DNA of 40,618 bases from a virus (taxonomy: Duplodnaviria; Heunggongvirae; Uroviricota; Caudoviricetes). Below are positions 25,067-33,515 of the stretch, piece after piece (the stretch's first letter is position 1; each line of letters opens with the position of its first letter). The position numbers were made by a program, and so were the translations under genes. The notes below the pieces were generated by a model that was given only the letters and a program-made list of their open reading frames with translations, ran no database searches and was not told the DNA's origin. The stretch is from the IMG/VR virus record IMGVR_UViG_2718218168_000006; one strand, written 5' to 3'.

Positions 25067-25141
<75 letters not shown>

Positions 25142-25144
25142 ATA

Positions 25145-25220
<76 letters not shown>

Positions 25221-25222
25221 AC

Positions 25223-25299
25223 TGGACCGCCACCGGGGACTCGAACCTCGCACACTCAACTTAAAGGGTTGACGCTCTTTCCTGATGAGCTAGTGGCGG
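25223..25299 (-). tRNA. atypical tRNA (anticodon loop CCTTTAA, apparent anticodon UUU; C at position 33)
   Basis: 7-bp acceptor stem CCGCCAC/GTGGCGG, T-loop TTCGAGT, encoded CCA; C33 and one T-stem mismatch make identity uncertain. Confidence 0.4.
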
Positions 25300-25300
25300 T

Positions 25301-25376
25301 TGGTGGCCCTTGCTGGATTTGAACCAGCGACCTGGCGATTATGAGTCGCTCGCTCTCACCACTGAGCTAAAGGGCC
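25301..25376 (-). tRNA. tRNA-Ile2/Met (anticodon CAU), ileX/ileZ-like
   Basis: GGCCCTTTAGCTCAGTGGTGAGAGC..CTCATAA..GGTTCAAATCC..AAGGGCC-A-CCA; resembles E. coli ileX. Confidence 0.7.
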
Positions 25377-29449: not shown

Positions 29450-29842
29450 TTACTGCCCAGTTTTAACGAAGTTTTTAAAGGAAACAATTGCCTGATAGGG
29501 GTTTGGTTGACAGCCAAACATATTATCGCAAAAAGGCTTGATGAAAATTCTTGCGGATCCATCTTCATTTGGCATTTTACTCACTTGATAAGCGAGGAAT
29601 GGGCTATTTGGTGAAGGGTTATAAGTGGAAATTAGCGTGTCTGTCGCCGTTTGAATTTTCCATGAGGAATTATTAGCCAACCAGAATTGCGCTCGTTTCC
29701 AATAAAAGTCACATTGCTTTTCATCATTACATGTTAGTGGCTTCATTGCTTCTGCTTTCAACGCTGGATCGACCTTTGCTGCACACCCTCCCAACATTAC
29801 TGTTGCAATCATTACACCTGCGACTAAAACAAGTTTCTTCAT
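29450..29842 (-). CDS. lipoprotein (signal peptide plus lipobox LGGC), cargo gene
   Basis: 130 aa ORF MKKLVLVAGVMIATVMLGGCAAK.. with 4 further Cys; own terminator downstream. Confidence 0.7.
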   Translation of the reverse strand: MKKLVLVAGVMIATVMLGGCAAKVDPALKAEAMKPLTCNDEKQCDFYWKRAQFWLANNSSWKIQTATDTLISTYNPSPNSPFLAYQVSKMPNEDGSARIFIKPFCDNMFGCQPNPYQAIVSFKNFVKTGQ

Positions 29843-29985: not shown

Positions 29986-30141
29986 TTACTCCTCAGGTTC
30001 GTAAGCTGTGAAGACAGCGACCTCCGTCTGGCCGGTTCGGATTCGTACCTCGCAGAGGTCTTTCCTCGTTACCAGTGCCGTCACAATGACGGTAATACAG
30101 ATGACGATCAGGGCGACTAACATCGCCTTTTGCTGCTTCAT
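29986..30141 (-). CDS. hok: Hok/Gef family type I toxin
   Basis: 51 aa MKQQKAMLVALIVICITVIVTALVTRKDLCEVRIRTGQTEVAVFTAYEPEE, near-identical to HokD/RelF as I recall it; AAGGAG RBS. Confidence 0.85.
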   Translation of the reverse strand: MKQQKAMLVALIVICITVIVTALVTRKDLCEVRIRTGQTEVAVFTAYEPEE

Positions 30142-30352
30142 AGCCTGCTTCTCCTTGCCTTTCGGCACGTAAGAGGCTAACCTAGATTTGCCGTTCATAG
30201 ATTGAGCCTCAGATTAATGTTAAGCGTCTTGCCGGACGCGTAATGTTAACTGGGGCTTTTCTCTATCTGCCTTTTGGTGTTCATGCCTGAGACAGATAGC
30301 CTCAAGCACCCGCTGCAATTCTACTTAACTCTCCTTTTCCCGCAAACCGTTT

Positions 30353-30477: not shown

Positions 30478-30948
30478 CTAATCCATCGCCTTCTCCGGTA
30501 ATTTGCAGTCCGGCTGAGCTTTTTTCAGTTGACTGACCAGTCGTTTAACCCACATTGTTAATTCGCTAACCTGATTACTGGATGCTAGTGGATTGTCAGC
30601 TTTACCCAGAATGGCAGCACAGCAGGCCTCTTTGAGTACCCAATCAACAGCATCTTTCCATGATCCTGTTTCGGCTGGCGGATTTTCACGCTTTACCTGT
30701 TCATAAAAGCGCACGGCTTTAACCAGTCCTTCTGATGTCACCGGGACTGGCGGGGCAGTGAATAAGGCCTGAATCTCATAGCTCGGCCTGTCGTTGCAAT
30801 CCTCTTTTGTCGGTACATATTTCCAGTCACCAACCCACATCTTCTCCTGAAAGTCCGTAACGCTTTTTTTCACATAGCGATATCGCCATGCAACTGGTTT
30901 TGCCTGCCCTACCGTTTCATGCCCTTCCTGATAATTAATCTCGCTCAT
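30478..30948 (-). CDS. hypothetical protein
   Basis: 156 aa ORF; start overlaps the stop of the upstream small ORF. Confidence 0.6.
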   Translation of the reverse strand: MSEINYQEGHETVGQAKPVAWRYRYVKKSVTDFQEKMWVGDWKYVPTKEDCNDRPSYEIQALFTAPPVPVTSEGLVKAVRFYEQVKRENPPAETGSWKDAVDWVLKEACCAAILGKADNPLASSNQVSELTMWVKRLVSQLKKAQPDCKLPEKAMD

Positions 30949-31121
30949 TCATCGCCCCACTCATCACAATATGCTTCGACAGGTGTTTTTCCTGCTTCGT
31001 AGTCATCACGCCAGGCTTCAGCATCAGCAGCACTTCCACCACGTAACTCTGCATAGTCCATTAACAGTTCATGCCATTCTTCAAAACTGACATTGTATTT
31101 AGTTGAACCAAAATCAGCCAT
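30945..31121 (-). CDS. small hyper-acidic protein (58 aa)
   Basis: ATG preceded by GAGGAGG; MADFGSTKYNVSFEEWHELLMDYAELRGGSAADAEAWRDDYEAGKTPVEAYCDEWGDE; about 16 acidic vs 4 basic residues; coupled to both neighbours. Confidence 0.5.
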   Translation of the reverse strand: MADFGSTKYNVSFEEWHELLMDYAELRGGSAADAEAWRDDYEAGKTPVEAYCDEWGDE

Positions 31122-31296
31122 TTTGTTCTTCCTCCTCGTCTTTTATTTCGTGATATGAGTAATTGCAGTAGTTAAAGAAAATTTCTTTTGCTTCGTCATG
31201 AATTTCATCTGGTGTTGCGTCATCGTCCACTTCGAATACATCCTCAAAATCTCCACCAGCTATTCCTGTTTCAATAATTATTTTGAACTTTCGCAT
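31114..31296 (-). CDS. small hyper-acidic protein (60 aa)
   Basis: Track ORF; about 19 Asp/Glu vs 5 Lys/Arg (..FEDVFEVDDDATPDEIHDEAKEI..KDEEEEQNG). Confidence 0.55.
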   Translation of the reverse strand: MRKFKIIIETGIAGGDFEDVFEVDDDATPDEIHDEAKEIFFNYCNYSYHEIKDEEEEQNG

Positions 31297-31440
31297 TTCA
31301 CTACCGCCCTTTCGGGCGGCCTCCTGATGATTTGAGGGTACAGAAATCCCTCCGGTTAAGGATTAAATTTTATTTACAGAACTGAATTTAATTATTCAGA
31401 TATACGTATCTGTAACCTTACGAACCTACTCACTGGATGC

Positions 31441-31914
31441 CTATTTCATAAAAATAATCCAGTGGGTTTTATCGTTTTTTCCTGTTCGTTGACCGATAAC
31501 AGGTTTTCTGTCGGTCAGTATCAATATCTGGCGAACAGGTATTTGCGTTTCATTCCATTTAAAAATCAGAACGCCGGATGGACGCAACACACGAAAGGCT
31601 TCTTTAAATCCCTGCCGCAAATCATCACGCCAGGTATCTTTATTCAGCCGTCCATATTTCTTTCCCATCCAGGCGTTATCACCAACACGCTCAAGATGCG
31701 GAGGGTCGAATATAACCATCGAAAAAGATGCGTCTGCAAATGGTAGTGCACGAAAATCAGCTATCAGATCAGGACTGATAATCAGGCGTCGTCCATCACA
31801 CAATGTGTGCTCTTCCTTTCTGATATCGCTAAATATCGCCCGGTCGTCATTCTTATCGAACCAGAACATGCGACTGCCACAGCACATATCAAGAATGGTT
31901 GCCGGTGCACTCAC
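31441..31914 (-). CDS. orphan DNA methyltransferase (phage Dam-like N6-adenine MTase family)
   Basis: 157 aa ORF with SAM-binding-like DMCCGS and a DPPH motif (DPPY-type motif IV variant); GTG start overlapping the upstream stop; no adjacent restriction enzyme gene. Confidence 0.65.
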   Translation of the reverse strand: MSAPATILDMCCGSRMFWFDKNDDRAIFSDIRKEEHTLCDGRRLIISPDLIADFRALPFADASFSMVIFDPPHLERVGDNAWMGKKYGRLNKDTWRDDLRQGFKEAFRVLRPSGVLIFKWNETQIPVRQILILTDRKPVIGQRTGKNDKTHWIIFMK

Positions 31915-32333
31915 TGCGCTACCTCCGGAAAATTACCCTGATAGAAAGCCAGTACACGCTGCATAGCTTCGCTCTTCCGGCACTCGCGACAGATTATATT
32001 CAGGCGCCTGTCGTAGCGACGTATTTCTCCGTCAGGTAATGACCAGATAAGGTCCGGATCAACCACAACCGGTTTCTTCAGCTTTGCCCTCGATAATTTT
32101 TTGCGGGCATTTTGCCAGTCTTTACGAGCCTGTTCAGACGGGAATAACCCGTAGCCAGAATTGTATACATCGCCACTGGCAACCAGCTCTCTGGCGAGAA
32201 CACTCATCAGATATCTTGTCGCACCTGTTTTCGCTTCCAGTTGTCGTAACGTTTCGCGCCCGCTCTGGCGCACGAGTTCAACAACCTGCCTCTTAATTTT
32301 TTCCCGCTCTTCTTGTGTAAATACTTTTGCCAC
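31911..32333 (-). CDS. hypothetical protein
   Basis: 140 aa ORF between O-like gene and methyltransferase; coupled to MTase start. Confidence 0.6.
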   Translation of the reverse strand: MAKVFTQEEREKIKRQVVELVRQSGRETLRQLEAKTGATRYLMSVLARELVASGDVYNSGYGLFPSEQARKDWQNARKKLSRAKLKKPVVVDPDLIWSLPDGEIRRYDRRLNIICRECRKSEAMQRVLAFYQGNFPEVAQ

Positions 32334-32373: not shown

Positions 32374-33444
32374 TTACCCCCTGAAGCCCGGTGGAATTTC
32401 GGTATCCGGTTCAGAAATATGATTCACACAACGCTGGTTGTTCGTGCCGCTTACCGGGAGCAACCAGGGGTTTTCAAAATTCCGGTCCGGTCCAAAAAAC
32501 GTCGTCGCTCGCTGAACAAATTCCGTTCCCGTTTTCCCGGTAGCCGCTAGGTATCTTGCGTAACGCCTCACACCATCCAGCATGGCCTCTGGTGGCACCC
32601 CCTCGCGTAATCTGGCCTTCCAGGCACTGAAAGCGGATTTCTTCGGGTTTGCCCCGGCACGCAACGGGTATTCCCGCCAGACCTGTTCGAACACATCCGG
32701 ATAATCCACTCGTCCCACAGGCTGCCCGGTGTTTTCCGGGACTACCCGATCGGCTTCCCGCTGAATGGCGGAATCGGCTTCAGGCTGCTGCAGTTGGTGT
32801 GATTGCTCCGGCCTTGCGGTCATCACCTGCTGCACAGCGCCCGAATCGGCTTTCAGCGCATACGCTGAATCGGCTTCCGGTGTCGTGCCTGCTGGCTGAC
32901 CAGGATTGACGGTCTGAACATCCCCTGCCTGGTTCGTGGCATTTTTTACGCCATGGACCATAGTGTTTTGATCTTCTTGATCTGTATCTTTATCTGTATC
33001 TTTATCTGTCGTGACTCGTCGTGACATGTGCGTGACATTTCGTGACGCGCCGTGACAATCTCCATTTTGTTCCCGCTTTCTTTCCCTCTCTCGCTGCGCC
33101 CTCTTGCGCTCTGCAGGAGATTTTGCGGTTTGCGAAATATTGCCGTTGTCCTCTTTAAGCACCTGGCGTTTTTCCCATCCAGTGATTAAATCACCATCAA
33201 GTACCCGCCCCTGCATCGTCTGCAAAATTGAATCAATTACCTCTTCTGTCACGTCGAGCGCACTTGCCAAATCTTCTGTCGTGACATCAATGTGACCTCG
33301 CGTGACATTTCGTGACGCGCTCACCAGGAGGTGGATATACACTGCCATCACTGTTGCAATTGGCTGCCCTGACACCCTGGCAATTGTTCGCCACTTAGGG
33401 TCATTTGGCATGTCATGCCATAATCTGAGCCAAGCGTTAGCCAT
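32374..33444 (-). CDS. replication initiation protein (lambda O-like role; N-terminal HTH, DnaT-like C-terminal region); contains the presumed origin
   Basis: ORF MANAWLRLWHDMPNDPKWRTIARVSGQP..; ATG at about 33444 after GAGG; iteron clusters lie inside the coding sequence. Confidence 0.7.
   Translation of the reverse strand: MANAWLRLWHDMPNDPKWRTIARVSGQPIATVMAVYIHLLVSASRNVTRGHIDVTTEDLASALDVTEEVIDSILQTMQGRVLDGDLITGWEKRQVLKEDNGNISQTAKSPAERKRAQRERERKREQNGDCHGASRNVTHMSRRVTTDKDTDKDTDQEDQNTMVHGVKNATNQAGDVQTVNPGQPAGTTPEADSAYALKADSGAVQQVMTARPEQSHQLQQPEADSAIQREADRVVPENTGQPVGRVDYPDVFEQVWREYPLRAGANPKKSAFSAWKARLREGVPPEAMLDGVRRYARYLAATGKTGTEFVQRATTFFGPDRNFENPWLLPVSGTNNQRCVNHISEPDTEIPPGFRG
33009..33060. 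repeat. iteron cluster 1: five CGTGAC repeats at about 10-bp spacing, preceded by tandem tatctgtatcttta repeats
   Basis: Read directly: gtgactcgtcgtgacatgtgcgtgacatttcgtgacgcgccgtgaca. Confidence 0.7.
33279..33320. repeat. iteron cluster 2: four GTGAC repeats at about 10-bp spacing; shares an identical 20-mer with cluster 1
   Basis: gtcgtgacatcaatgtgacctcgcgtgacatttcgtgacgcgc; 20-mer cgtgacatttcgtgacgcgc also at 33031-33050. Confidence 0.7.
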
Positions 33445-33515
33445 ACTCACCTCTTCTGATACCGAATCTTTTTACTCACGAGTTGCCGGAAGCGATTCGA
33501 TATGGCTATTGTCAG

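Follow-up and report, generated by a model that had tools for sequence, protein, structure and literature searches.

Independent assortment of a solitary methyltransferase gene and a pair of small acidic-protein genes in an Escherichia coli lambdoid prophage

The question raised by the locus described here is whether a small methyltransferase gene and two genes for tiny acidic proteins, lying close together on the minus strand of the virus record IMGVR_UViG_2718218168_000006 (the stretch of 40,618 nucleotides (nt) that was analyzed, called the window below), form a single anti-restriction module. An initial annotation, made from the sequence, had proposed that they do, with the two small proteins, here called orf60 and orf58, acting as DNA mimics in the manner of Ocr and ArdA. 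The best-supported answer is that the locus contains two independently assorting cassettes, which are neighbors here by chance as a result of ordinary lambdoid mosaicism. The features on which the argument depends, with sizes in amino acids (aa), are the following.

31911..32333, minus strand: DUF977 / LygF-type gene, 140 aa (Pfam DUF977, 5.5e-29; phrog_142, 'Ren-like exclusion protein')
31441..31914, minus strand: solitary class I S-adenosylmethionine-dependent methyltransferase, 157 aa (phrog_954, 'DNA methyltransferase', 3.9e-86)
31297..31440, minus strand: non-coding leader of the acidic-protein cassette, 144 nt, between the methyltransferase gene and orf60
31114..31296, minus strand: orf60, DUF7167 protein, 60 aa, net charge -14 (Pfam PF23768; phrog_1997)
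30945..31121, minus strand: orf58, 58 aa, net charge -12 (C-terminal part of phrog_519; no Pfam family)
30478..30948, minus strand: orf156, Ead/Ea22-like protein (phrog_660)

The three minus-strand open reading frames (ORFs) of the initial annotation are present where it had placed them, with sizes of 157, 60 and 58 aa, but the way in which they were said to be linked requires correction. The methyltransferase gene is not translationally coupled to orf60, because the non-coding gap of 144 nt (31297-31440) lies between them; it is coupled instead to the upstream DUF977 gene, whose stop codon overlaps the GTG start of the methyltransferase (GTGA). The two acidic-protein genes overlap by 8 nt (ATGGCTGA), and a Shine-Dalgarno sequence (GAGGAGGA) is located within the acidic-tail codons of orf60. 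The overlap of orf58 with orf156 (ATGA) makes orf156 the third, translationally coupled gene of this cassette; the span proposed earlier, which began at 30945, left it out. The orf156 product has a net charge of 0.

The independence of the two cassettes is evident from related prophages and from complete genomes. In a sample of 100 non-redundant IMG/VR loci, the overlapping orf60/orf58 arrangement is kept in 99, and an orf156-like gene and hok usually follow orf58. The upstream gene is visible in 79 of these loci, and in just 10 of them the methyltransferase gene directly precedes orf60. In the commonest arrangement, DUF977 is located about 519 nt upstream and the slot is occupied by an unrelated 118-aa gene. 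Because most related prophages carry an unrelated gene in the methyltransferase slot, this position can be regarded as an exchange point for accessory genes. Among 5426 complete E. coli genomes, the acidic pair (presence at a coverage of at least 80%) was found in 1748 and the methyltransferase in 854, with the full 2-kb arrangement in 249, or about 14% of the pair-carrying genomes. The Shiga toxin (Stx) phage ArgO145 carries the trio of orf60, orf58 and the Ead/Ea22-like gene in its early-left accessory (exo-xis) region, among ead/Ea22-like genes (its orf156 homolog is itself annotated ead/Ea22-like), and no methyltransferase gene adjoins the trio there. Each acidic family is also found without the other in virulent phages, and the methyltransferase relatives in Gordonia, Listeria, Streptococcus, Vibrio, Acinetobacter and Bacteroides phages have no common acidic neighbor. 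By co-occurrence and by adjacency, no conserved module of methyltransferase and acidic proteins was found, and the proposed anti-defense islet does not hold as an arrangement. The product of the 118-aa slot gene (beginning MEIKPEDELSN; about 3550-3905 in L044, an IMG/VR E. coli prophage) has a cysteine-rich CHH...C..C motif and a basic, coiled-coil-like C-terminus.

The strong acidity of both small proteins, by comparison, was fully borne out. The net charge of orf60 is -14 (isoelectric point 4.06) and that of orf58 is -12 (isoelectric point 4.05), giving charge densities of -0.21 to -0.23 per residue. The six frames of the window contain 174 ORFs of 45-90 aa, with a mean net charge of +4.6 and a standard deviation of 5.0; orf60 and orf58 are the two most acidic of them, and they are neighbors. 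Both are real genes under strong purifying selection. Across E. coli prophage copies in IMG/VR, the ratio of nonsynonymous to synonymous polymorphism (pN/pS) is 0.089 for orf60 (51 distinct alleles) and 0.099 for orf58 (39 distinct alleles), compared to 0.20 for the methyltransferase and 0.29 for orf156; these sequence data mark the small ORFs as genes and speak against their being untranslated. Acidity is a conserved trait of both families, with divergent relatives at 35-60% identity remaining acidic in temperate and virulent phages, and in phages of Gram-negative and Gram-positive hosts. Both proteins thus have the highly acidic, family-conserved composition that is looked for in a DNA mimic. 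The retention of acidity in divergent relatives across hosts points to a kind of target that is widely conserved, and it fits a selected acidic binding surface, as a nucleic-acid mimic would need.

Both proteins belong to families that are already catalogued without an assigned function. Protein orf60 is a clear member of DUF7167 (PF23768) and of phrog_1997. It scores 53.6 bits against the Pfam profile, above the gathering threshold of 24.4, with residues 2-53 aligned to profile positions 1-60 of 60, that is, over the full domain. The AF2 model (pLDDT 70.8), which like that of orf58 was built on a shallow alignment, predicts a beta-hairpin (3-24) and a helix (29-43), with the C-terminus and the acidic tail uncertain. 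Six distant DUF7167 proteins have net charges of -10 to -14, and relatives occur in Enterococcus Herelleviridae, Klebsiella Guernseyvirinae and a jumbo-sized Pseudomonas phage. In other phages the DUF7167 genes overlap varying neighbors, which differ by lineage: DUF2800/PD-(D/E)XK nuclease in Klebsiella, DUF3850/ASCH in Enterococcus and Ea22-like in E. coli. Annotations of 'exonuclease' beside DUF7167 in several phage records had suggested an exonuclease link, which was rejected once the Klebsiella and Enterococcus neighbors were identified as these two families. Searches with DUF7167, the PHROG identifiers and the protein accessions, and for exo-xis together with anti-defense, found nothing relevant in the searchable literature. 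Two E. coli proteins (P0046 and P0047) are in-frame chimeras of the methyltransferase N-terminus and the C-terminal half of DUF7167, which show that some prophages have undergone deletions between these genes. There are many further chimeric or truncated copies, for example with Ea22-like or DUF977 N-termini fused to DUF7167.

The second acidic protein, orf58, matches the C-terminal part of phrog_519; the greater length of the phrog_519 profile probably reflects read-through gene calls such as P0149, which joins DUF1187 to orf58 sequence. The orf58 family comprises 65 representative clusters at E-values of 1e-3 or below, and includes members in Ackermannviridae (e.g., CBA120 orf183 and Menlow). 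The mean charge of 32 diverse relatives is -0.17 per residue (range -0.07 to -0.30), about 11 alignment columns are predominantly acidic (at least 64%), and six aromatic positions are near-invariant (F13, W16, W37, Y41, Y/W51 and W55). The AF2 model predicts a three-helix bundle (pLDDT 81). A concatenated profile search with both families added few distant members (P0196, P0200, P0201, P0203 and P0204). In two of these, P0203 and P0204 (metagenomic; L175, 5001-5630), an N-terminal orf58-like domain is fused to a Cys/His-rich domain of about 130 aa; the fusion partner gave only a sub-threshold match to DUF6283 and no relative in the PDB, and its context was uninformative.

The likeness of orf60 and orf58 to Ocr (T7 gp0.3) and ArdA is that all are accessory proteins of phages or mobile elements that are extremely rich in acidic residues and do not differ much in charge per residue; Ocr has 34 acidic and 6 basic residues in 116 (PMC4872106). 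Kinship to Ocr, ArdA or other solved anti-restriction proteins was not found in either sequence or fold. Neither small protein has a Pfam match to Ocr, ArdA, KlcA/ArdB or Arn, phmmer searches against all PDB chains gave only chance matches at E-values up to 10, and Foldseek searches of BFVD retrieved only uncharacterized phage proteins. No resemblance of either predicted fold to a known DNA mimic was found. In addition, Ocr and ArdA are elongated dimers of 116-166 aa that mimic long DNA and are expressed first on entry, whereas orf60 and orf58 are predicted to be compact domains of 58-60 aa and their genes are delayed-early.

An acidic inhibitor need not resemble Ocr in its mechanism, as TifA, which is not DNA-shaped, makes clear. 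TifA (Orf65 of Enterococcus phage phi47) is a small acidic protein that binds type IV restriction enzymes; it has 21% acidic residues and two domains, of which the N-terminal one is SH3-like (PMC10680825). It shares with orf60 and orf58 the status of a small acidic phage protein, and it binds a nuclease directly without resembling Ocr or B-DNA. The predicted structures differ from it, with a single beta-hairpin and helix in orf60 and a three-helix bundle in orf58. Homology of the two proteins to TifA was ruled out on its described architecture rather than by sequence comparison.

The methyltransferase is solitary, as was originally proposed. In the window, and in the annotated identical region of E. 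coli strain G749, its neighbors are DUF977 and DUF7167 and no cognate nuclease gene of a restriction-modification system adjoins it; the nearest nucleases are RusA, an HNH gene beside the terminase and a RecE-like exonuclease, kilobases off. Motif I (ILDMCCGS) and motif IV (DPPH, residues 70-73) are both intact in the window copy. Relatives were found in 254 phage records at 47-65% identity, with near-constant length (151-173 aa), from phages of Actinobacteria, Firmicutes, Bacteroidota and Proteobacteria. Seven homologs spanning these phyla have 43 invariant columns, including LD..GS of motif I, D30, DF at 53-54 and DPPH at 70-73; the LD-CCGS and DPPH sequences, which are invariant in all seven of these distant homologs, correspond to motif I and the (D/N/S)PP(Y/F/W/H) signature.

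The substrate of this enzyme is most likely DNA. Its Pfam matches are confined to the generic Methyltransf_11 and Methyltransf_25, with none to Dam or MethyltransfD12, and 3 of the 7 relatives match N6_N4_Mtase weakly (best E 0.0014). In our reading of the alignment there is no target-recognition domain, since the Rossmann core fills the 157 aa and no variable insert occurs among the relatives. A search of PDB sequences with the family profile produced no informative relative, and the family has no solved relative. A second DNA methylase gene lies beside or near the small methyltransferase gene in Gordonia phage Pickett (L169, 1-1968), Listeria phage LP-101 (L171, 956-1959) and Bacteroides phage BKO1-TP3 (L170, 743-2196), which hints that the small enzyme may work alongside another methylase.

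Small size is no argument against activity on DNA, because PamA, a methyltransferase of only 141 aa from the Staphylococcus aureus prophage mPhi11 with an NPPY motif, is an active GATC methylase (PMC12435837). The window enzyme resembles PamA and phage Dam proteins in its length (about 140-160 aa), in the position of motif IV near residue 65-73, in being encoded in the early region of temperate phages, and in having neither a separate recognition domain nor a nuclease partner. It differs from them in having DPPH rather than NPPY, and in its lack of a Pfam Dam or MethyltransfD12 match. PamA, with its NPPY motif and Dam-like character, is unlikely to belong to the same family and serves here as a precedent only.

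The acidic cassette is preceded by its own leader, which is kept upstream of orf60 in most E. coli prophage copies regardless of the preceding gene. Within it, the sequence AGGAGG (31320-31325) directly precedes a GC-rich hairpin whose loop is GAAA (31304-31319), and 7 nt further on comes the ATG of orf60; a second hairpin is located at 31334-31352. The linear distance from the AGGAGG Shine-Dalgarno sequence to the start codon is 23 nt, and only the folded hairpin would bring the two close together. By analogy, the leader looks like a split ribosome-binding site, of the kind described for T4 genes 38 and 25. The RNA fold is stabler than those of shuffled sequences (z-score -2.83). The hairpins were also considered as a covarying RNA element, and this was rejected: pair counts are not above those of shuffles, and the apparent compensatory change in the first hairpin is out of register. 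The gap contains no Rfam family, consensus promoter or terminator that could be found.

The locus as a whole is an accessory stretch of an E. coli lambdoid prophage, and corresponds to the nin region of lambda. Prophages of E. coli strains G5, G749 and 181.1 match the 2-kb region at 100% identity. In the annotated G749 copy the region belongs to the early rightward operon of a lambdoid prophage of the Qin/Rac type, with the gene order Cro-like, YdaT, replication protein, DUF977, methyltransferase, DUF7167, two hypothetical genes, HokD, DUF968, RusA and Q; DicB, YdfA-D, an exonuclease and an integrase are found across the immunity region from this operon. The nin and exo-xis mosaics of lambda provide the same kind of niche, in which small accessory genes are exchanged in the interval from the replication genes to Q or in that from exo to xis, although lambda itself has no match among the phage records listed for the acidic families. 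The remaining neighbors in the window are as follows.

32374-33450, minus strand: replication-protein gene, upstream of the DUF977 gene
29986-30311, minus strand: hokD-type toxin gene with sok RNA (Pfam HOK_GEF, 1.5e-23), directly downstream of the cassette
30136-30311, minus strand: sok antisense RNA (Rfam RF01794, 112 bits)

Further along the minus strand lies an ORF of 130 aa (29450-29842) without a Pfam match, whose product carries a signal sequence of the lipoprotein type (...MLGGCAAK...); the G749 annotation calls it only hypothetical. The late-gene regulatory region of the prophage holds a cluster of four tRNA genes (Gly-tcc, Thr-tgt, Lys-ttt and Met/Ile-cat) at 25067-25376, also on the minus strand; in the prophage region of G749, which is otherwise identical, three tRNAs are annotated and the make-up of the cluster differs.

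How might the two cassettes function? The first, a solitary amino-methyltransferase, would methylate phage DNA at N6-adenine or N4-cytosine during replication, allowing progeny genomes to resist restriction or to bear an epigenetic mark. The second is the tightly coupled trio of orf60, orf58 and the Ead/Ea22-like protein, with its own conserved leader. Its two acidic proteins would work in stoichiometric amounts: through an acidic surface and the conserved aromatic residues, each would bind and block the basic surface with which some protein of the host or of a competitor contacts nucleic acids. They would thus be anti-defense or host-takeover inhibitors that are 'DNA-mimic-like' in a broad sense. 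The probability that orf60 and orf58 are stoichiometric binders of basic nucleic-acid-binding surfaces, in anti-defense or host takeover, is put at roughly 0.4, which makes this reading tentative. Within it, DNA as the methyltransferase substrate and a decoy mechanism for the acidic proteins seem most likely.

Several points weigh against this reading. Neither orf60 nor orf58 has homology to any characterized inhibitor, and because their genes are delayed-early, they would come late for shielding DNA from classical restriction as it enters the cell. Acidity by itself is weak evidence, given how many small phage proteins with different roles share it. On the side of the methyltransferase, the lack of a recognizable DNA-recognition domain and of a solved relative leaves room for a non-DNA substrate. 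In addition, the otherwise identical methyltransferase gene of E. coli G749 (L002, 10042-10471) is frameshifted whereas the window copy is intact, arguing that the enzyme is dispensable in that lysogen.

The main rival is that orf60 and orf58 are developmental modulators which, together with the coupled Ead/Ea22-like protein, tune lysogenization, induction or the host cell cycle. The acidic pair is nearly always followed by, and coupled to, an Ead/Ea22-like gene, the ArgO145 trio is embedded among ead/Ea22-like genes, and in a Klebsiella prophage the DUF7167 gene again comes after a weakly Ead/Ea22-like gene. Moreover, the exo-xis genes of lambda and Stx phages influence lysogenization and induction. 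However, both families are also found in strictly virulent phages (Ackermannviridae, Enterococcus Herelleviridae and Guernseyvirinae) without an Ea22-like neighbor, and since such phages have no lysogeny decision to make, this weakens the developmental explanation, which we consider possible but unlikely.

The module first proposed, a dedicated islet pairing the orphan methyltransferase with two DNA mimics of the Ocr/ArdA kind for joint action against type I restriction-modification or BREX, is improbable. It is favored by the Ocr-like charge density of orf60 and orf58, by the absence of a nuclease partner for the methyltransferase and by the accessory nature of the region. Nevertheless, the methyltransferase and the pair occur together in only 249 of 1748 genomes and 10 of 79 loci, they are uncoupled and separated by 144 nt, and none of the comparisons by Pfam, PDB sequence or fold connected the small proteins to Ocr, ArdA, KlcA/ArdB or Arn. 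At 58-60 aa they are also far shorter than the approximately 24-bp DNA mimic that is Ocr, and their expression is delayed-early.

Another explanation is that the host is not the target, and that the acidic proteins are chaperones or neutralizers of basic phage proteins, for example a DNA-binding or toxic product. Tight translational coupling implies a fixed stoichiometry with the neighboring gene products, and DUF7167 genes overlap different neighbors elsewhere. The same variation by lineage means that no conserved partner is visible, and orf156, with its net charge of 0, is not basic; this explanation is quite improbable. Finally, the reading of the small ORFs as chance or decaying untranslated frames, for which one could cite the many truncated or chimeric copies in databases, is very hard to credit given the low pN/pS of 51 and 39 alleles, the full-length relatives in distant phages, the strong start sites and the membership of orf60 in a Pfam family.

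The preferred reading, that orf60 and orf58 bind basic nucleic-acid-binding surfaces, can be extended to a bolder and distinctly unlikely form. There, the two proteins would be the founding members of two new families of miniature acidic inhibitors, different from each other in structure and directed against a widely conserved DNA-targeting defense or DNA-metabolism enzyme of Gram-negative and Gram-positive hosts. The methyltransferase would be a minimal DNA enzyme without a recognition domain, which either acts without specificity or is guided by a partner and which is conserved in phage lineages of several phyla.

The locus is a reasonable and unexceptional list of candidates, rather than a demonstrated anti-restriction module. 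Its interest lies partly in its distribution, since about one in three complete E. coli genomes has the acidic pair, and each of the two families extends to virulent phages that are used or considered for therapy, including Kuttervirus, Klebsiella and Enterococcus phages. The methyltransferase is unusually conserved for a phage methylase and has no recognition domain, so that its target would be informative. If either acidic protein does inhibit a defense system or a core DNA enzyme, it would be a very small and easily synthesized tool, and such a role would explain a common prophage accessory cassette.

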